The notes under the pieces are model-generated. The model made no database searches. It had not been told where the DNA came from and saw nothing but the letters and a program-made list of their open reading frames with translations. A stretch of DNA of 63,537 bases, filler included. It is 15 parts of 15 records of this genome, joined end to end, with 100 filler letters (N's around TTAATTAATTAA, not from the genome) between each part and the next. Parts side by side here need not be neighbours in the genome. Positions count along the whole stretch, not along the records: positions 38,657 to 47,446 come from SRR7504441_85566; 14 more parts are not named here. One strand, written 5' to 3'. Both the position numbers and the translations under genes were made by a program. This document shows, piece by piece, positions 4,101 through 57,599 of this stretch. The stretch's first letter is position 1; each line of letters begins with the position of its first letter.

Positions 4101-4200
4101 NNNNNNNNNNNNNNNNNNNNNNNNNNNNNNNNNNNNNNNNNNNNTTAATTAATTAANNNNNNNNNNNNNNNNNNNNNNNNNNNNNNNNNNNNNNNNNNNN
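4101..4200. other. Artificial contig linker (N-run + TTAATTAATTAA six-frame stop + N-run)
   Basis: The same 100-nt spacer recurs at 8386-8485, 11670-11769, 15163-15262, 18474-18573, 21832-21931, 25287-25386, 29952-30051, 34140-34239, 38557-38656, 47447-47546, 50924-51023, 54142-54241 and 57428-57527. Confidence 0.99.
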
Positions 4201-8256: not shown

Positions 8257-8485
8257 TGCGCACCCAGCCACCACACCGCGCTGCCCTCGGCGCTACTATT
8301 ACCGGCCCCTTACCCTACCAGTTGCAGCCACCGACTGCATGGCACCACTGTTTTTATTGCTAAAAACTGTGGGATTTTATTTGCANNNNNNNNNNNNNNN
8401 NNNNNNNNNNNNNNNNNNNNNNNNNNNNNTTAATTAATTAANNNNNNNNNNNNNNNNNNNNNNNNNNNNNNNNNNNNNNNNNNNN

Positions 8486-16575: not shown

Positions 16576-18372
16576 CTAATAACCTTCATTTGAAACCTCT
16601 ACAGCCACCTTAGGGTAAGCCACCGCGCACAAATCAGCCGCCAAGTCATGCCGAGCCTCGCCATTGTCCCAAGGGAAACCGTAAGAAAACCCATAGAGAA
16701 GCAGCCGCTCACCGTCAAACTCAATCCGCCCGCCGCCCAGTACCGAGTAGCCCACCCCTGCCGCCGCCAGCGCCCGAGTGGTGGGCTTCGCCGCGTCTTT
16801 ATGATACTCGGCCGCCACCCGGCCGCGGACCAGCAGCCGCTCTGGCGTTGTGTGGAGCTGGATCAGCACATACTTCTGTCTGCCACGCTCTATGTCCACC
16901 GGAGGGAACCTCTCTTCATCCGGGCCGCTCGCCCGAATCAGCACTGCGATCCTCTCCCCAGCCTGCGAGACGGCCTTACCAAACTGATTGCATCCGGCCG
17001 CGAGCGAGAGACAACCGTGCGGCATTCTTCGGAAAACATCTAGGTGCACGGGGATCCCGAGCCGGCCCAGCCTTGCGGCAAAGGCCAGCGAGTCGTCCAA
17101 CAACGGGTCCAGCTCGGCCGCAAACAGGTGCACCGGAGGCAGCCGGCGTAGGGCCTGGTCGGTGGCGTGCCATGGCGAGGCGCGTTCAAGCTGAGCTGGC
17201 GAAAGCTGCACGTCTCCGAGGTATGCTGGCAGGAGGCTTAGTAGTACAGAGAGAGGCAGGAGGACGTCCATCACAGCGAGCAGCCGCGAGGGCGAGATCA
17301 CTGGCTCGAGGCACAGCACCGGGTAGAATCCCAGCACCGCGTCTGGAGGATGAGGGGCTTCCATGGCCGCCGCCACCGCCAGATTGCCCCCTGCCGAGTC
17401 CCCCGCCAGACCGAGCCACTGTAACGGACCAGTCGAGCCCACTGCAGCTGGCTGGGCTCGCACGGCGGTCAAGACGGCGACGAGCTGCTCGAGCTGCACC
17501 GGGAACTTGTGCGCCGGAGCTAGCGAGTAGTCGACGCACAGGATGGCCGAGCCTGCGGGGAGAGAACGGCACCAGCGGGTGAGGTATGAGAGGTGCGACT
17601 TACTCGACTGTGCCACAAACCCGCCGCCGTGCGCATAAACCAACACCGAACTGGCCGGCCGGCTGTCCGCTTGCAGCAGCCGGACCGGCACGCCCTCGAG
17701 CTCGAAGCACCGATTGACACCGACCTTGACTGCCGACATAGCAGGCAGGCTCTCCGGAAGGCTCCAAAACTGCGCCACGTCTTGCACACGCGGCCGGGCC
17801 AGCAGGCTGGCGATCCGGCGCCCCCGGTCTGCAGGAGACGCCAGGTTCCCCAGTGTGCGGAAGGCGGTGCCAAACAGTCCGCTCGACTTGCTTTGGCCTA
17901 TTGTAGCCATCGCCGAGAGCAACAGCCGCATCAGACCGGCGGCGGCCGGCCCGTACTGCGCGCCTGCGAACTCGGCATAGAACAGGACCGGGTCCATCGC
18001 CATTGCCGCCTGCTTGATATCCTCAAACTCGTCGGAGAGTTTGGTCGACTCCCCACCCGCCCTGCGCAGCCGCTCGGCCAGCTCGAGCAGCCCCTCGCAG
18101 CGCTCAAGCACCCGCTCGGCCGCAGTGGCCAGTGCCCCTGGTCTGGCCGGCGGCCGCTCTAGCTTTGTCAGCACCGCCTCCAGGCACGCATCGAGGGCCG
18201 CACACAGCGCAGTGAACCCGTCTAGGGCCGCGGCGGGCTGCTCGAGCAACCGGCGCTGGAGCCGATCGGCCAGGCAGTGTAACGGGGCCAGCGCCGCGAG
18301 CCTGGCCGGGGGGACTGCCAGCCGCAGCCGCACCGACACCCCCCAGTCGGCCGGCTCAACCCTGGCGTGCAT
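16576..18372 (-). CDS. Hormone-sensitive-lipase family alpha/beta hydrolase fused to a C-terminal Janus/Ocnus (PHPT1-like phosphohistidine phosphatase) domain
   Basis: Single open frame. Lipase motifs: HGGGFVAQSSKSH, VDYSLAP..FP, AGDSAGGNL, SPSRLL...D.LLP, LDPLLDDS, PHG. Then PVDI..G..KYVLI...VRG...AEYH.D...LGGGRI...YGFS.GF...H......YP......NEGY. Confidence 0.9.
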   Translation of the reverse strand: MHARVEPADWGVSVRLRLAVPPARLAALAPLHCLADRLQRRLLEQPAAALDGFTALCAALDACLEAVLTKLERPPARPGALATAAERVLERCEGLLELAERLRRAGGESTKLSDEFEDIKQAAMAMDPVLFYAEFAGAQYGPAAAGLMRLLLSAMATIGQSKSSGLFGTAFRTLGNLASPADRGRRIASLLARPRVQDVAQFWSLPESLPAMSAVKVGVNRCFELEGVPVRLLQADSRPASSVLVYAHGGGFVAQSSKSHLSYLTRWCRSLPAGSAILCVDYSLAPAHKFPVQLEQLVAVLTAVRAQPAAVGSTGPLQWLGLAGDSAGGNLAVAAAMEAPHPPDAVLGFYPVLCLEPVISPSRLLAVMDVLLPLSVLLSLLPAYLGDVQLSPAQLERASPWHATDQALRRLPPVHLFAAELDPLLDDSLAFAARLGRLGIPVHLDVFRRMPHGCLSLAAGCNQFGKAVSQAGERIAVLIRASGPDEERFPPVDIERGRQKYVLIQLHTTPERLLVRGRVAAEYHKDAAKPTTRALAAAGVGYSVLGGGRIEFDGERLLLYGFSYGFPWDNGEARHDLAADLCAVAYPKVAVEVSNEGY

Positions 18373-38656: not shown

Positions 38657-38755
38657 GCCGATCGCCAGGCCCCGGGGGAGCGGTCCGGGCGCACCCTCCG
38701 GGTCGCCCAAGGCCAGGCACGCCGAGGCAACCATGGCCAGAATCACCGCAGCCAT
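38657..38755 (-). CDS. N-terminus of a secreted protein (truncated by contig end)
   Basis: MAAVILAMVASACLALG signal-peptide-like start, divergent from the gene at 38827. Confidence 0.4.
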
Positions 38756-40011: not shown

Positions 40012-41743
40012 CTAGTCTTCAAACAACAGATCCGGCCTTTGCTCAGCCAGCTGGAGCACCGCCTCGCCCAAGTAGCTGTTAGCCATCGCAAACCAAAACC
40101 TCGTGTACTCGGAGGCGTTCTGGTACCAGTAAGACTCGTGCATCAGCCCAGTCCCGCCACTCGACTCCACAAGCGCCCGCAGGATCGCACGCCGCTCCTG
40201 GTCCGCACTTGCCCCGGAGCCGGCCACAGTCAGCAGCCGGATGCTCAGTGATAGCGGCCAAATCCTGCCAAGTCCCGGATTCCCCGAGGCGTCCTCCGAG
40301 CCTATCCCGCCGAGCACCGGACAGGCGGCGGGGTGGTCGCATCCGTAAAAGTACGGGTTGGTCCTGTTGCTCAGCAAGAGCCTTCGAGTGCTCTGATACA
40401 CGGCGTGCTCGGCGGGGAGGTACCCCAGGAAGGGCAAGCTGAGCAGCGAGGGCGGGTTGGCGTCGTCCCCAAAGAAAAAGTTGCCAAACCCGTCCACCTC
40501 CATCGCGAACACCTCCGCCCCCGAGCTGTGCCGCACCACCCCCCACTGCGAGATCGCCCTGTCCACCTGGTCCGCCAGCCGCTCCGCCGCCGCTGCGAGA
40601 TCCGGCGCGAGTCCCAGCTGCCCGAGCAGCTTGGCGAGCCCTCGCAGCTCGACAACCAGGAACGCGTTCCCCGGGATGTGGTACGGCAGCCGGGGCGAGT
40701 CGTCGCTGGGCAGGAACGAGGTCCGGACCAGCCCGGTGTACCGGTGGTTGCGTCCTATCCCGTGGGCCGAGGTGTCTTTGGGCTCGTCGCTCAGAGTCTG
40801 GAATGTATAGTTTGTCTCGGAATAGTTGCGCGGCCCCAGCGGCGCCTGCATCACTCGATAAGCCACCGCCACTAATACTGTACTGACCTGCATGGTCCGG
40901 TAGGTCGTCACCACCGTGCGAGCAGCCTCCAGCCACTCCGCATCAAACGGCCGCCTGTCCTCAGTTGCCTGCCCCAGCCATCCCCTCCCCCCCCGCCGGG
41001 CTGGGCGCCTCCCAGTACTGGCGCGATAGCTTTAAGAACGAGCTTAGCGAGTCCATTTCCCACCTGGATCACACAGTCTCAGCAGAGTCTCAACACACAC
41101 AGTGCTTGCGCTGGTGGATCCCAACTCGCATCCCGTTCACCCGAGTGCCGTTGGCGGTCAGCTTGGTCGTCTTGTCCTTGGTCCACGCCCCCGGGTTGCA
41201 CTCCAGCGCCGCCTGCCCCCCGTCGCCCCCGGCGCCCCCCCCCCGCACAACCTGCTTAGTCTCGAAATAATCAAAAGCGTTCGCGTAAGGGTCGAGCAGC
41301 ACGCTGCCGGCGTGCCGCTTGATCAGCCCCCGGAGCAGCCGGCCCATGCCCTCAGGCTCCTGCTTGGCGTATCGGATGTACGGCAGCACCTGGTTTTGGG
41401 AGTCGCGCAGGTACAGGCTCGGCTGATCCCCGGTGGAGATGAAGCTTCGCGGATCCTTGGGGCCGGGCGCCTGCCAGACGGTGGTGTCCAGCGTGTTGGG
41501 CAGGCAGTTCCACAGCAGCGTGCTCAGCTCCGGCAGGCGCCACCGGCGGGCCCTCAGCGCGGCCAGCGAGGCCTCCAGCGCAGGCGAGACGAAGCTCCTG
41601 TTGGCCGGGGCCGGACGGGCGTCTGGGAGCGGGCGGGTCGGCGGGACGGCGGGCGGGCCCTGGTGCCCGTCCTTGCAGTCGAGCTTGCCGGCGGCCGCCC
41701 CCAGAGCAGCGCAGAGCAGCGCGAGGCGAACAGCTGGTACCAT
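40012..41743 (-). CDS. Secreted glycoside hydrolase family 125 (exo-alpha-mannosidase-like)
   Basis: Signal peptide; RP....R.F.S, NCLPNTLDTTV, TGD....LRDS, DPYANAF, TGL....F.PSDD, EVDGFG.....DDANPPSLLSLP.LGY, GTGLMHES, FAMANS. Confidence 0.92.
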
Positions 41744-41859
41744 GAGCTGAGTGTTGCACAGAGTTGCACAGCCTCCCACCGGAGTGCAAAATAAACGAAA
41801 AGATGGAGAAATGTGGCATTTCCTGGAATTTCTTTTTCTGTGACTGGAGCTCAACCGAG

Positions 41860-43626
41860 ATGGCCATGCTCAGGAGGGTGCTGGTGGCCCTCGCGCTGGT
41901 GGCCGGGCTGGGGCGGGGGGAGGAGCAAGGGGCGGGGGAGCTCGGGCTGCTGGCCGCCAAGATCAGCGCCGCATCCCCGGCCGTCCGCCAGCCCATGCTC
42001 AAACGCATCTGCGACGAGGCGTTCGGGGCCGACGGGAAGCAGCCCAAGAAAGGCTTCTTCGGAGCTCTCAGCACCCAATCGCAGCCGAGCCAGCAGCCAA
42101 CTACCCCGGCGGCCAAGCCCTCTAGCTCGCGCCGGGCCACCTCGGGAGACAACGCCAAGGCCGCCAAGGAGCTGACGCGCTGCGCCAATAAGCCCAAGGG
42201 CTGCGGCTATCAGGACCTGTTACGGTTCGCCAAGGAACAGTCGCCCCGGTGCGGGAAGCTGCTTGGCGCCAAAACTGTGATCCACTTGCCGGGTCGCCCG
42301 ACGCCCCAAACTGTGGAGACAGAGACTTGGCTAAAGGTGGCGTCGCAGGCCAAAATCCTAGTCAAAGGTTCGATGGAGCGGGTAAAAGACCAATACAAGG
42401 GTCTGAAGTTGGAACCCCCCAAGGTTAGCTGGAACCTTGGCAAAATCGGAAAGTCAATCAAAAAACTCAAGGACTATTTTGGGAAAATTACTTCCATCAA
42501 TGAGGATGTGCAGAAAGCAAAGATTAACTTCAGGGAAGTTCGGGACGTCACGGCCACGACCTCCCGCGTGCGCGGAACAGTGCTGATTACCGGAAAAGCT
42601 GCTGTTACCTTCCCTGCATCGTGCTCGGGAGTCTGTAACGGCAGGATGCAGGGAAACTCTAAAAAGCTCAAAGAGTGGCCAAGTTCAGAAGTGCACAAGT
42701 TGGCAGCAGAACACATGGCGACAAAACAGAATGAGGCCGCGAAGAAGGCTGCCAAGAATGAAAAGAAGACTACAGAGGAGAGCAGGCGGCGCCGCAGGAA
42801 GAAGGGCGGAGAGAAGAAATCAAAGGGGAGTGGGCGGCGTAGGAAGAAAGGCGGAGCGAAGCCGGCAGCAAAGAAGAGCAGCGGCAGGCGGCGCCGCAGG
42901 AAGAAGGAGCTTGTGTTGGCTGAAACTGCGTCTATTGGCGGCCGCCGAAGAAGGAAAAGCAAAAAGGCCACAAAGAAGGCCGCGAAGGCTATGAATGTTG
43001 ACCTGAACGAGCTGTGTGCAACTAGCAGTAAGCTTCCAGACAAGACACGGGAAAAACTGCTAAATGAATACTGGTGTGTTGAGGACCCTAAGTATGGCCC
43101 TGGCAGTCGTGAATGCGTCAATTGCCAGCACCAGAAATGTGTAAAGACCCACGGGGCTGGGAACTGTTGGAAATGTAGTGCAATGGTCCAACTTGGTAGC
43201 ATTGGCTACGTGTGCAGTGCCAATGATGGTCAAGTGTCCACAGTATGTAAAGCTCTTATCACAGACGAGGCCACACAGCCTTGGGTGGGTGCCTTTGTGA
43301 AGCAAGCCTCCGATGTCCCTCTAAAAAGCCTGCCGGGCGCAATAACAAGGTTAGGAGAAAGCACCCAAGGGGGGCGTCGACGAAGGAAAAGCAAAAAGGC
43401 CGCAAAGAAGGCACGAGCTCCTGCACCAGCTGCAGTAAAAAAGGTTGGAAAGGAGGATCTGCCACTAAGCATACTCACATTCCCGATGCTGAAGGAGGTG
43501 CACTGTGAGAATGCGGAGAGCTGTACCACAAGCAAGGCTACTCCGTGCATGAAGGACACGGCTGATGCTCCCTCGAATAATTGTAAGCCTAATGATGAGC
43601 TAACGAGTCTCATTAAAGCGTTTTAA
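41860..43626 (+). CDS. Intronless secreted Cys-rich, Lys/Arg-rich protein of unknown family
   Basis: Signal peptide MAMLRRVLVALALVAGLGRG, long open frame, about 19 Cys and repeated (G)RRRR(R)KK/KSKK blocks. Confidence 0.8.
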   Translation: MAMLRRVLVALALVAGLGRGEEQGAGELGLLAAKISAASPAVRQPMLKRICDEAFGADGKQPKKGFFGALSTQSQPSQQPTTPAAKPSSSRRATSGDNAKAAKELTRCANKPKGCGYQDLLRFAKEQSPRCGKLLGAKTVIHLPGRPTPQTVETETWLKVASQAKILVKGSMERVKDQYKGLKLEPPKVSWNLGKIGKSIKKLKDYFGKITSINEDVQKAKINFREVRDVTATTSRVRGTVLITGKAAVTFPASCSGVCNGRMQGNSKKLKEWPSSEVHKLAAEHMATKQNEAAKKAAKNEKKTTEESRRRRRKKGGEKKSKGSGRRRKKGGAKPAAKKSSGRRRRRKKELVLAETASIGGRRRRKSKKATKKAAKAMNVDLNELCATSSKLPDKTREKLLNEYWCVEDPKYGPGSRECVNCQHQKCVKTHGAGNCWKCSAMVQLGSIGYVCSANDGQVSTVCKALITDEATQPWVGAFVKQASDVPLKSLPGAITRLGESTQGGRRRRKSKKAAKKARAPAPAAVKKVGKEDLPLSILTFPMLKEVHCENAESCTTSKATPCMKDTADAPSNNCKPNDELTSLIKAF

Positions 43627-43744: not shown

Positions 43745-46485
43745 TCAAGGTGCATCGATGACGGTATACGCCATATCGTAGCCGCCACCTTCAACGTGTG
43801 GCAAGTTATGCCCGAGCTGGAAAGCCACCCCGAGCCGCCTCCCGGCCCCGAGCACCACCATGTCCGAGTAGCCCGACGGGCCAGGGTACACCCCGGCGCT
43901 CCAGCTCCATTGCTTGCCGCCGTCCAAGCTCGAGTAGATTGTGTAGTTGGTTCTGTCGCCGGTGGTCGTGTTCATCGGGAAGCCCATGTACAATCGGGTG
44001 GCCCCGTCGACTTGGGTCGACACCATCGCTGCTTCCACTTGATGCACCGGCAGTCCGGCCAGCCCCAAGTGCCACGTCTCGGCCCAGCTTGTGCCGCCAT
44101 CATCAGACCGGCCAAACAGGCGACAGTGATAGCTCCCGTTGCAAGCGTTCAGATTGGGCGGTGTGCCCGGGCTGTGGCGTGTGCTGATCAGCAGAGACCC
44201 GTTCTGCAGCTCTGCGACTGCCGACTCGCCATCGGTTCTGAGGCCGGACGGATGCGGCAGCTGCGCGCCAGCCTGCCAAGATTCGCCGTCGTCATCTGAG
44301 TAAATCGCGTTGGTCACGCTGGTTGGATGGCTCTGAAAGATCTCGCTAGTGACCACCAGCCGGCCTTTGTGTGGACCCCGCTTGATCTGTAACCCGTGCG
44401 CCACAAACCCGCTCGACATGAACCGGGCGCTCCCTGGGAGCTCCGCCGGTTGGCTCCAGGTCAGCCCGGTGTCACGGCTCTTGATCATCATCACGGTCCC
44501 CGGGGGCGCGCCATTCCCAGGCTGAGCGTACACGAAAAAGCTGGTATCGCTGGTGGCGCTGTGCACCAACTGGCCGCCGCTGAATACGGTGGACGTGCAC
44601 CCATCATACAGCAGCTTGGCTGGAGGCTGCCACGATCCGCCACCGTCAAGGCTCCGCCTGAGCTCGTACCATGTCGGTGTCTGGTGCGGCGCGTCGGGCG
44701 GGTCGCATTTGCCGAGCGCCGCGAGCAAGACAGTGCCGTTATTTGTGCTGCAGAAGCTCGCCCCCCACCAGTTGCCCGCACCGCCGCTCCCGTGCTTGGA
44801 TGGCTTAAACGTCCACAGAGTCTGCACAGGACGCGGATCAGCCCGCGCCGCCTTCTTGGACACGACCACTGTCACCACCGCCCCAGGCTGCAGCCCAGCC
44901 GCCGGATAAAGCCGGACCACTGGGTCCGACTGGTTGTACTCGATACGGACGCTGCCCGTGCTCGCGGTGGCTGTTATGTCCGCACCGTCCGGGTACCGGG
45001 CCGGCCACACAAATAGCTCTGACGCGACTGCGAGCGACTGGAGGCGGTACTGGAGCCGAAAGAGCCCGCTGGTCTGGTTGAAGGACATGGCGATGTGCTC
45101 GCCCGCCACTCGAGGGGCGTAGGTCCGAGTGAGGTCTGTCGAGTAGTACGCAGGCGGGCTGCCCAGCGCAGGCCAATCGACCCCATGCCCGGTCTTGGGC
45201 GCCCCCCAGCTGTAGTACTGGCTAACGGAATGGGCGTCGGCCGGGCCCTCGCGCACGAACGATTTCCAGCCCCAGTCGGCCCAGCCCTGCAGCCGGGCGT
45301 CGCAGGCATCGGTCAGGTTGCCCTTGGTGTCGTACTTCCCGGGGGCCCAGATCGCCTCGGTCTCGGTCATCATGGCCCCCGTCCCCAGCCGCACAGCCGA
45401 CTGCACATGGCTGTCCACCTGTTCCGTTGCTGTCCGTTGAGGCGGCTCGTAGAAGTGATAAGTCAGCACCGTTCTGTTGGCATACTCGGGGCCTCCGGGC
45501 GGTGCGGAGAACCCCGAGCCCAGGTCACCCCAGGTGACCCCCGCGATGAAGAGCAGGGTCTGTTGGTCGACGGCCCGGACGGCAGCGTTCACCTTGTCGT
45601 ACACCGGTTGCAGGTTGACTCTGTCTGCGTTGGTCGGGCTCGGCCACGGCACCTGCGCCCCGTCCCCCCCCCCCCGGCATAGCCACACACCATGATGGCC
45701 GGGTGGTGGTAGAAGTCTCCAGCGAACGGCTCGTTGAACAGATTCAGGCCGACCACCTCCGTCCGGCCCGCGAACCGCTCAGCAACTTTCCCCCAGAACA
45801 TCGCATAAGCGTCGGCGGTTCCATTCCAGTTAGACCAGAGCGCCTGGTAGGCCTGGCTGGCCTCGTAGGTGCTCTCCCCGAAGGAGGGGCCGTGCTTGTG
45901 GCTGTCGCAGGCCTGTCGGGTCGGGATGCTCGCCCCGGCCAGCTTCGGCTCGCTGTAGTAGCTGGTTCCGTTGAATCGGCTGAACGGCGCCGGGAACGGC
46001 TTTCGGAGCGGCTGGTCCCAACGGTCAACATTCCGCTTGACCGCCCAGCTCGGGAGGCCCTCCCCGCAGAAGTGCTCGGACAGCCCGTCCTGATGCATGT
46101 CGAGCATCACGTAAACCCCGTGCCGCCCGGCGTTCTGGACGATTTGGTCGATATGGTCGAGGTAACTCTCGTTGTACTGGCCGCGGACGGGCTCCAGCCC
46201 GGGCCACATCACCCCGAGACGCAAAAAGTTCAGCCCGAGCCGGCGCATCCAGCCGAAATCCTCAACGGTCATCGAGATATCTGTAGAGAAGGTGGTTGTG
46301 TCCGGGTGCCAGGGCGGGCCCTTCACCACAGCGCTCGAGCCGTGGAAGAGCAGCTCGCGGCCCTCGGCGTCCACAAACCCGGCCGCCCGCCCGGCCCGCG
46401 GCTCCAGGTGCACCCGGCTCAGCCCGGCCGCCACCGCCGTCAGCAGCGCCAGCGCCAGGAGCATGCGACCCAGTTGTCCCGGCAT
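43745..46485 (-). CDS. Secreted GH5 endoglycoceramidase-like enzyme fused to a C-terminal BNR/sialidase (GH33-like) propeller
   Basis: Signal peptide; FVD..GR....HG...V.KGPPW, RLGVMWPGLEP..G.YN..YL, LDMHQD, NEP, YH.Y, TE; EGCase C-terminal beta domain (RTYA..VAG). Then five Asp-boxes S.D.G.(S/T)W and GYSD. One 36-nt intron near 45655-45690. Confidence 0.9.
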
Positions 46486-46552
46486 GAACTCCAAAATTAA
46501 TGCTCAGAAGTCCGTTAACGTTGGAGGTCGTTGCTCCGGGGAATCGGCGGGG

Positions 46553-47446
46553 ATGGGAGCCTGCTGCTCGTCGGACGACACCTCGGCGCGGCCCGGCCGG
46601 CCGGGCGGGCGACGGCTGGGCAGGTGAGCGAGGGGATCGTGCCCCGTCCGCTCCGGTTTGACCAGTACGCCCGCGAGGCCCTCAACTCGGGCGGTGGCCC
46701 AGGCCCGCCCGCCCGGCCAGCGGCGGCCAGAGTGGGCCCCGGCCTCCGAGCGGACCCTGCGGAACGTGCTCGTACTCCCGGGAGCGCTGCGCCCGGACGG
46801 CTCGCCCGACCCCAACCAGTGGGTCCTCTCCTGCCGGTGGGTTGTCCGTTGGGATCGGCGAGCGGCGGCAGGTTCCACCCGTCGGACCCGGCCCGGATAG
46901 TGAGCTCCACCCACGACTCCCGGATCGTCGAGTGGAGGCTAACCGACGGATCCCACCGGCCGGTGATGGCCCACCACCCGACAGGCGCGATCTTCAGCTG
47001 CGACTTTCACCCGAACGGCCAGCTGCTCGCCTCAGGCGGCGGGTGCCCGGTAGCTCCAGGGCCGGGCCGAGCGGCCGGCACAGCGGGGCGCATGCCCGGG
47101 GAGGGGACGGTGTGGTGCGGATCACGGAGCTCGGCACGCGGCTTGAGCTCAAGAAGCTGGGCGGCCGGGCGCCCGGCGCCATCGCCCAGTCCGGACACAC
47201 GGACGCTGTCCGGTGCGCCTGCCGGCCGACCGGTGGCTGCAAGGAGCGGGCAGCTACCTTCGGTTCTCGCCTTGCGGCCGGTGGCTGGGCTCGGCTAGCC
47301 TGGACTCGACGGTCAAACTGTGGGATATGGAGCTGCCGGCGGAGACCGCGCAAGTGGCTTCTATGAGGCACCAGCACGCCACCGGGCGCAAGGCCAACGT
47401 CCGGTGCCCCCTTGGGCTGTGCCCCCCCCCCCCCCCCCCCCCCCCC
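46553..47446 (+). CDS. WD40-repeat protein with MGACC dual-acylation N-terminus (3' truncated)
   Basis: IFSCDFHPNGQLLASGG and FSPCGRWLGSASLDSTVKLWD repeats. Confidence 0.8.
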
Positions 47447-57306: not shown

Positions 57307-57599
57307 GGGCTACATGCAGCTGCCCAGTAGGGACTGGCTCAGCTGCCGTTGCGCAGATCTCACGACCGGCCGTGCGTTGCCGGCTCAATCCTGCTGGCGT
57401 CGTGAGCGGCTACCAACCCAAGCCCCCNNNNNNNNNNNNNNNNNNNNNNNNNNNNNNNNNNNNNNNNNNNNTTAATTAATTAANNNNNNNNNNNNNNNNN
57501 NNNNNNNNNNNNNNNNNNNNNNNNNNNGCCTCGTACCCCCCCCCGGAACTTGGATAAATAGATGTCAACACAAGGCTAGGGACAACTAACGGTCACGCG

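Follow-up and report, generated by a model that had tools for sequence, protein, structure and literature searches.

A leader-bearing, endoglycoceramidase-like GH5 enzyme fused to a GH33-type propeller with an altered active site in a microbial eukaryote

Endoglycoceramidases (EGCases; EC 3.2.1.123) of glycoside hydrolase family 5 (GH5) consist of a barrel followed by a C-terminal sandwich, and structures have been solved for Rhodococcus EGCase II (2osw/2osx), for EGCase I (5ccu/5j14), and for 6jyz. The GH33 exo-alpha-sialidases, such as those of Micromonospora viridifaciens (1eur), mouse (NEU1, 8du5), Porphyromonas gingivalis (PG_0352, 8feb), and Clostridium perfringens (NanI), are six-bladed Asp-box propellers with an arginine triad and a Tyr-Glu pair. 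Not all members of GH33 act on N-acetylneuraminic acid (Neu5Ac): the 2-keto-3-deoxynononic acid (Kdn) hydrolases, or Kdnases, of Aspergillus fumigatus and Sphingobacterium and a 2-keto-3-deoxyoctonate (Kdo) hydrolase reportedly belong to the family and use other substrates. To our knowledge, the known Kdnases keep the full arginine triad. Here, a gene that joins an EGCase-like GH5 enzyme to a GH33-like propeller is described. It lies within a 63,537-nucleotide (nt) stretch of DNA, which is called the window and consists of about 15 contigs of 3 to 9 kb joined by 14 spacers; the gene sits on the contig at 38657..47446.

The window protein shares the barrel and the sandwich with the EGCases, which are its best solved relatives by a wide margin, and it keeps their NEP acid/base and TE nucleophile motifs. 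Whereas none of the EGCases found carries a sialidase-like domain, the window protein does. That domain is 20 to 24% identical to the GH33 sialidases, superposes on them with a template modeling (TM) score of about 0.75, and shares the six-bladed Asp-box propeller, the Tyr-Glu pair, and the second and third arginines. However, it has Trp for the first Arg, Gln for the Glu partner, His for the acid/base Asp, and Lys for another Arg. The Kdnases and the Kdo hydrolase are said to show the GH33 scaffold turned to another 2-keto-3-deoxy acid sugar, which is the kind of shift proposed below for this propeller. Its nearest relatives are stand-alone environmental and protist proteins (P0001; P0175-P0182, P0028, and P0035), 73% identical for P0001 and 40 to 46% for the others, which have the same Trp/His/Gln (W/H/Q) propeller, a Cys pair, and a TGDRTNYT motif but, unlike the window protein, no GH5.

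According to PMC3526467, the extracellular EGCase subfamilies of CAZy GH5 are the eukaryotic GH5_27 and the bacterial GH5_28 and GH5_29; the window protein appears to be extracellular too, from its leader (judged by eye). In a comparison of 30 stramenopile genomes, sialidase orthogroups ranked first as indicators of phagotrophy (PMC8163842, Table 1), GH33 and GT29 families were reported as expanded in scaly prasinophytes, which the authors linked to Kdo-rich scales (PMC13213038, PMC3491373), and susceptible Emiliania huxleyi strains were reported to contain sialic-acid glycosphingolipids (PMC5371807). Neither the W/H/Q clade nor a GH5-GH33 fusion is described in the parts of these five sources that were available. 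More broadly, the literature searched, with most subscription journals and CAZy outside its scope, yielded no GH5-GH33 fusion, no sialidase-like family with Trp for the first arginine, and no characterized enzyme with the W/H/Q pattern.

Architecture of the fusion gene

The gene is on the minus strand and runs from the ATG at 46485 to the TGA stop codon at 43747..43745 in two exons, whose spliced product is 900 residues long. Unspliced, it appears as two overlapping minus-strand open reading frames (ORFs) in different frames, 46494..45589 (301 amino acids [aa]) and 45688..43745 (647 aa). A 38-nt GT..AG intron (45690..45653), G-rich and including a run of 12 G, lies within the GH5 barrel, and the DNA across it reads ...ATC ATG / GTGTGTGG...(12 G)...GCGCAG / GTG CCG TGG.... 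Its removal restored the frame, giving the product HHPAIM-VPWPSPTNADRVNLQP (...HHPAIM/VPWPSPTNAD...), and the spliced sequence was collinear to the residue with the intron-free homologues P0004, P0006, P0009, and P0011. A regular expression for short G-rich introns matched only this intron, compared to a shuffled mean of 0.46, and no intron class is claimed.

Exon 1 (45691..46485, residues 1 to 265) contains the start codon, a hydrophobic leader at about residues 1 to 23 (46485..46417), and the N-terminal half of the GH5 barrel. By way of this leader, the protein would enter the secretory or endolysosomal route. The first part of exon 2 (45652..44861, residues 266 to 529), assigned by Pfam, encodes the C-terminal half of the barrel and the beta-sandwich (residues 441 to 529, 45127..44861). 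The sandwich is followed by an 11-residue linker, SKKAARADPRP (residues 530 to 540, 44860..44828), and by the six-bladed GH33-like propeller (residues 541 to 900, 44827..43748). An earlier interpretation made from the DNA letters only, here called the sequence-only reading, had proposed this order of leader, EGCase-like GH5 barrel, sandwich, and GH33-like propeller; the analysis supports this order, and every motif that it quoted was found at its place in the spliced residue numbering. It had also described the sandwich as continuing in frame into the propeller, which is correct, but it missed the 38-nt intron in the barrel. The passage from sandwich to propeller is inside one uninterrupted exon, and the fusion is therefore independent of the intron call.

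The GH5 module resembles EGCases more than any other solved GH5 enzymes. The Pfam Cellulase/GH5 family (PF00150) scored 56 bits on the first ORF and 30.3 bits on the second (cutoff, 23.5), and Glyco_hydro_5_C (PF18564) scored 31.4 bits (cutoff, 22) and covered positions 1 to 87 of its 87-position profile. When exon 1 alone was compared with PDB sequences by phmmer, Rhodococcus EGCase I (5j14) matched at 1.7e-24 and EGCase II (2osw) at 6.6e-14. A profile of the family (A2), built from the two window pieces and 16 relatives, matched EGCase I 5ccu at 1.9e-59, 6jyz at 3.3e-46, and EGCase II 2osw at 2.5e-39, whereas its first non-EGCase match was 9ku5, a glycoside hydrolase or putative beta-xylosidase, at 4.4e-23, and a sterylglucosidase matched at 7e-17. 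The NEP acid/base motif is at residues 251 to 253 (Glu252, 45732..45730), and a TETE motif is at residues 361 to 364, of which the first Glu, Glu362 (45364..45362), is the nucleophile. NEP and the first TETE Glu are nearly invariant columns in the A2 alignment; in the profile search, Glu362 fell at a position occupied by E in 5ccu and by S in 5j14. Since both catalytic glutamates are intact, the module should be an active retaining beta-glycosidase, probably an endo-acting one of the EGCase type. Its closest relatives are 60 to 73% identical, 514 to 708 aa long, and end a few residues past the sandwich, and one close relative, P0009 (65 to 70% identical), carries a GH45/expansin-like domain after the sandwich. 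Relatives with an organism name are more distant, in Triparma (51 to 54%), Prorocentrum (44%), chytrids (about 40%), Marchantia (33 to 34%), and Cafeteria (34%).

The ends of the stand-alone relatives coincide with the junction. Stand-alone GH5 proteins stop within a few residues of the linker start, and the stand-alone propeller P0001 has its own leader and a mature part that begins at the same VQTLW that follows the 11-residue linker. The join therefore swaps the leader of the propeller for a whole GH5 enzyme. The GC content at third codon positions was 0.86, 0.82, and 0.77 for the three gene parts, and relative synonymous codon usage correlated at 0.89 between GH5 and propeller, with no sign of a chimera. 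The fusion is taken to be real in this assembly and of recent origin.

So far, the combination is unique among the sequences searched. GH5 and a BNR propeller occurred on one protein in 0 of the 24 matches in a first search and, by BLAST, in 0 of 174 stored proteins (150 listed of 2665 matches, plus the 24). Likewise, no GH5 was found in the 120 matches listed of 528 in a third search, and no BNR domain was found in 55 proteins of 465 to 2000 aa in a fourth. A single long alignment flagged P0171 as a second such fusion; this candidate was rejected, as it has BNR families only.

The propeller pocket and its clade

The propeller is descended from GH33 sialidases. Pfam BNR_2 scored 55.2 bits on it (cutoff, 31.4), and it contains five S-x-D-x-G-x-x-W Asp boxes, which start at residues 599, 657, 717, 781, and 840 (44653..44630, 44479..44456, 44299..44276, 44107..44084, and 43930..43907, respectively). 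All 44 of its PDB sequence matches at E <= 0.01 were sialidase, neuraminidase, exo-alpha-sialidase, or BNR/Asp-box proteins or engineered or metagenomic proteins of that fold, the best being mouse NEU1 8du5 (2.9e-14). An AlphaFold2 model of residues 538 to 900, made from a 54-row alignment, had a mean predicted local distance difference test (pLDDT) score of 90.2 and a predicted TM score (pTM) of 0.92. Foldseek matches to the PDB, among those listed, were GH33 sialidases or engineered proteins containing one, with query-normalized TM scores of 0.71 to 0.77, and in the ESM Atlas only generic bacterial exo-alpha-sialidase clusters were matched (scores, 0.95 to 0.96). A grouping with non-sialidase BNR families, one of the outcomes that the sequence-only reading had named as speaking against it, was not seen, as the PDB sequence matches and the listed Foldseek matches were all of the sialidase type.

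The motifs of the active site are NWWGASF at residue 559, GESAV at 740, ISTR at 754, GDRTN at 830, and GYSD at 859. In a phmmer alignment with the P. gingivalis sialidase 8feb, N-W-W-G-A was opposite N-Y-R-I-P, so that the second Trp faces the arginine of the RIP motif. The triad is thus incomplete: its first arginine is Trp561 (44767..44765), and the second and third are present as Arg757 (44179..44177) and Arg832 (43954..43952). The nucleophile pair, Tyr860 (43870..43868) and Glu741 (44227..44225), aligns to invariant columns. Two further changes are coordinated with the loss of the RIP arginine, namely, the acid/base Asp is His588 (44686..44684) and the Glu partner in the last blade is Gln877 (43819..43817). 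In addition, a conserved Arg that follows the second strand, a few residues before the acid/base Asp, is Lys580 (44710..44708). The sequence-only reading had recognized the retained Glu, two Arg, and Tyr and had noted WWGASF in place of the RIP motif; the alignments agree on the former, and phmmer and the profile-profile comparison agree on the latter. They indicate, however, that the change is wider than it saw, with the acid/base Asp and the Arg-partner Glu replaced as well.

Residue usage was counted in an alignment of the propeller parts of all stored matches (181 rows). Trp occupied the RIP arginine column in 22 rows, and all 20 of those that reach the last blade had Gln there, in place of the Glu of the canonical (L/F)(Y/F)E motif. 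Arg occupied the RIP column in 127 rows, in which the last-blade residue was Glu in 124, Ala in 2, Thr in 1, and Gln in none. The last-blade Gln was also found in 21 fragments that lack the N-terminal column. At the acid/base loop position, 94% of 123 canonical rows had Asp, and 13 of the 14 rows counted from the window's subclade had His; at the preceding conserved Arg, the canonical rows had Arg in 97%, and the subclade had Lys in 14 of 14. In 12 to 14 clade rows, W560, W561, K580, Q877, E741, R757, R832, and Y860 were 100% conserved, and H588 was 93% conserved. A profile-profile comparison (hhalign) of 12 subclade rows with 16 canonical rows gave a probability of 100 and an E value of 4.5e-66; it paired W561 with Arg, K580 with Arg, H588 with Asp, and Q877 with Glu, and each of E741, R757, R832, and Y860 with its canonical counterpart. 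A local-pair alignment placed His at the acid/base position in a second subclade too. The W/H/Q changes are not a sign of decay; in the rows sampled, they mark a single clade next to canonical sialidases. By homology and by their secondary-structure places in the confidently predicted model, W561, H588, K580, and Q877 probably line the pocket. D585 was also considered as the acid/base residue but was discounted, since it sits in an insert of two residues and P0001 has His there.

An IQ-TREE tree was built from 72 rows, comprising the 32 that are not plain Arg/Asp/Glu (R/D/E) and the 40 most similar of the 116 R/D/E rows. The rows with Trp and Gln (W/Q) form one clade of 20 of the 72 rows, with a Shimodaira-Hasegawa-like approximate likelihood ratio test (SH-aLRT) support of 95. 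Its sister, with support of 99, is a canonical RIP/D/E clade (P0063, P0085, P0109, P0141, P0183, and P0188). The window propeller pairs with P0001 (73 to 74% identity; support, 99) within a 12-row subclade (support, 100), whose other members are 40 to 46% identical to it. Other invariant features of the subclade are the Cys pair 769/775, FxRSDDGG, PMNTTTGDRTNYT, and VEGGGYDM. Ten of its 12 rows are without another catalytic domain, and some start with a hydrophobic leader (judged by eye). The Trp/Gln signature belongs to a whole clade of mostly stand-alone propellers and not to this gene alone, and the clade is an uncharacterized branch of the sialidase family.

Some clade members do carry other domains. 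P0185 joins a GH28 domain (213 bits) and P0198 a GHL15 domain to a W/Q propeller, P0193 has a W/Q propeller with a weak ricin-B match, P0001 has an EGF-like tail, and P0035 has a weakly esterase-like N-terminal region (3wyd, 1.1e-3; 3doh, 1.5e-3) before its W/H/Q propeller. Both halves of the fusion are thus seen joined to other domains in relatives (P0009, P0185, P0198, and P0035). The clade looks eukaryotic. When 185,579 bacterial and archaeal species genomes were scanned with clade-specific patterns, 16 stretches were found and none was a relative; a second scan of the same genomes gave 72 stretches and 6 loci, of which 0 had the W/Q pattern.

Neighboring genes in the window

The spacers (4101-4200, 8386-8485, and so on to 57428-57527) have the form 44 N, TTAATTAATTAA, 44 N, with stops in all six frames. 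Because they are artificial, gene order across them is meaningless. The gene content of the window is eukaryotic, with a formin FH2 domain, an actin-family protein, and EF-hand, ankyrin, and leucine-rich repeat (LRR) proteins; an Rfam search of the whole window found zero RNA genes. The host of the fusion gene is a GC-rich microbial eukaryote, and the gene is nuclear.

On the same contig, a gene for a GH125 (metal-independent alpha-mannosidase) protein lies on the minus strand at 40012-41854, split into at least two ORF pieces that scored 230.9 and 78.3 bits in Pfam. It has a hydrophobic, leader-like N-terminal stretch and is thus a second secreted-looking glycosidase beside the fusion gene. 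Within it, a G-rich, in-frame GT..AG stretch of 39 nt (41251..41213, minus strand) lies right at the end of the N-terminal piece's Pfam match and resembles the 38-nt intron of the GH5 part. Such short, G-rich introns may be characteristic of the host organism, although a pattern search found no other clear example. Between the two glycosidase genes, a plus-strand ORF of 620 aa (41764-43626) starts like a leader peptide, contains repeats rich in Lys and Arg (GGRRRRKSKKAxKKA), has a C-terminal part rich in Cys, and is without a Pfam family. A WD40-like ORF (46531-47366, plus strand) lies near the contig end, and a run of 26 C at 47421-47446, probably an assembly end artifact, closes the contig right after it. 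Elsewhere in the window, a minus-strand ORF at 16579-18372 combines Abhydrolase_3 (hormone-sensitive-lipase-like, 129 bits) and HSL_N with a C-terminal Janus/Ocnus domain (64.9 bits), an unusual pairing.

Candidate functions and their meaning

The reading considered best, given about an even chance, is that the protein would be a two-module enzyme whose propeller works as an exo-glycosidase; its substrate would be an acidic 2-keto sugar that is not Neu5Ac but Kdn-, Kdo-, or 3-deoxy-lyxo-heptulosaric acid (Dha)-like. With a Tyr nucleophile and two arginines, the only sensible substrate is a sugar with a carboxylate at its anomeric carbon. The propeller is taken as a working enzyme because its replacements are invariant or nearly so across proteins that are 40 to 45% identical and because the clade consists mostly of stand-alone, leader-bearing proteins, some of them with a lectin-like or second hydrolase domain. 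In the proposed mechanism, one chain with two glycosidase modules would hydrolyze acidic glycoconjugates, acting as a digestive or secreted pair of enzymes. The GH5 module would make an endo-type cut that releases the glycan from its aglycone or chain. The propeller would keep the Tyr860/Glu741 chemistry, with the anomeric carboxylate held by Arg757 and Arg832, while Trp561, Gln877, His588, and Lys580 would give the pocket a new shape that suits an acidic keto-sugar different from Neu5Ac. The gene probably arose recently, when the end of a stand-alone GH5 gene was joined to a stand-alone propeller gene at the point where the mature propeller begins, and the fusion would place both activities on the same acidic glycoconjugate.

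Several points weigh against this two-enzyme reading. Loss of one triad arginine and the acid/base Asp would cripple a canonical sialidase, and strict conservation of a pocket is equally expected of a lectin. The placement of W561, H588, and Q877 in the pocket comes from alignment and predicted secondary-structure positions, and phmmer paired D585, not H588, with the acid/base Asp of 8feb, in a loop whose alignment is uncertain. The tree left out the other 76 canonical rows and kept the trait columns in. The leader peptide was identified by eye only, and the literature searched contained no characterized member of the clade. On the GH5 side, the bacterial NCBIfam model for endoglycoceramidase I (NF051847) gave 113 and 23 bits for exons 1 and 2, respectively, far below its cutoff of 700, and the GH45/expansin-like fusion of P0009 points to a polysaccharide rather than a glycolipid target.

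One alternative is that the propeller no longer cuts and is a sugar-binding module that anchors the GH5 enzyme on acidic glycans, much as inactive trans-sialidase-type lectins do. Three of the seven canonical catalytic-site residues (first Arg, acid/base Asp, and last-blade Glu) are replaced, the propeller is C-terminal to an enzyme, which is a common place for binding modules, and the conserved remainder of the pocket would suit a binding role no less than a catalytic one. However, it would be unusual for a pure binding module that 10 of 12 subclade rows are without another catalytic domain and that some have a leader; one clade member (P0193) has its own weak lectin match; and the clade rows do not vary in the Tyr-Glu pair, which chemistry requires more than binding does. 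The stand-alone members with a leader, the lectin-like domain on some, and the invariant nucleophile pair favor an enzyme, and the binding module is regarded as unlikely, though plausible. As for the target, the sequence-only reading had suggested glycolipids of prey or viral membranes, with a propeller that may be specific for a non-Neu5Ac acid sugar such as KDN or may only bind. Another alternative is that both modules are enzymes that act on an acidic algal cell wall or scale polysaccharide, with the GH5 module EGCase-like in sequence only. The GH45/expansin-like domain of P0009 and the fusions of the propeller to GH28, a polygalacturonase-type family (P0185), and to GHL15 (P0198) fit such a target, and those of P0009 and P0185 would leave room for it as opposed to a glycolipid. 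The missed NCBIfam cutoff, the algal GH33 expansions that their authors tie to Kdo-rich scales (PMC13213038 and PMC3491373), and the secreted-looking GH125 mannosidase-like gene on the same contig point the same way. However, among solved structures, the three EGCase types match the family profile much better (1.9e-59 to 2.5e-39) than any other GH5 enzyme does (4.4e-23 or weaker), and the GH5_C sandwich typical of EGCases is present. A polysaccharide target is considered rather improbable.

A third explanation, that the fusion is an artifact produced by misassembly of two neighboring genes or is a dead gene broken at the poly-G run, draws on the fragmentary assembly of short, spacer-joined contigs, on a frame change at a run of 12 G, which is prone to sequencing error, and on the failure to find a second GH5-propeller fusion among the matches searched. 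Against it, the junction is in frame, inside one exon, and exactly between the GH5_C end and the mature propeller start, with no remnant of a leader; codon use does not change across it; the 38-nt stretch begins with GT and ends with AG, and once it is taken out the product lines up with homologues residue for residue; and the catalytic and clade-signature residues are all intact. This explanation is very unlikely.

The two-enzyme reading can be extended, more speculatively. Algal scales and algal glycosphingolipids contain sugars of the Kdo, Dha, or modified Kdn type. It is conceivable, if doubtful at present, that the W/H/Q propellers are a new GH33-derived subfamily that removes such a non-sialic acidic keto-sugar with a platform of the Tyr-Glu pair, two arginines, a histidine, and a tryptophan, so far seen only in eukaryotic-looking sequences, and that the fusion is the first single-chain machine that strips this sugar and also detaches the glycan from its lipid or polymer anchor, used in protist grazing on algae or in remodeling of virus-receptor glycolipids.

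Sialidase-like genes are abundant in marine protists and algae, and none has a known substrate. Their links to phagotrophy or to Kdo-rich scales, as given in PMC8163842, PMC13213038, and PMC3491373, come from gene counts alone. A clade with a coherently rebuilt active site is a concrete entry point, with three revertible residues and many stand-alone members, and its fusion partners, EGCase-like GH5, GH28, and GHL15, hint at substrates. Should the propeller prove to be just a lectin domain, the gene would be a modest case of domain shuffling. If it is active on a non-Neu5Ac acid sugar, it would widen the specificity of GH33 and provide a reagent for acidic glycans of algae. Degradation of acidic glycosphingolipids by the fused enzyme, if real, would bear on how grazers digest algal membranes and on the lipids that are markers of virus susceptibility in coccolithophores.

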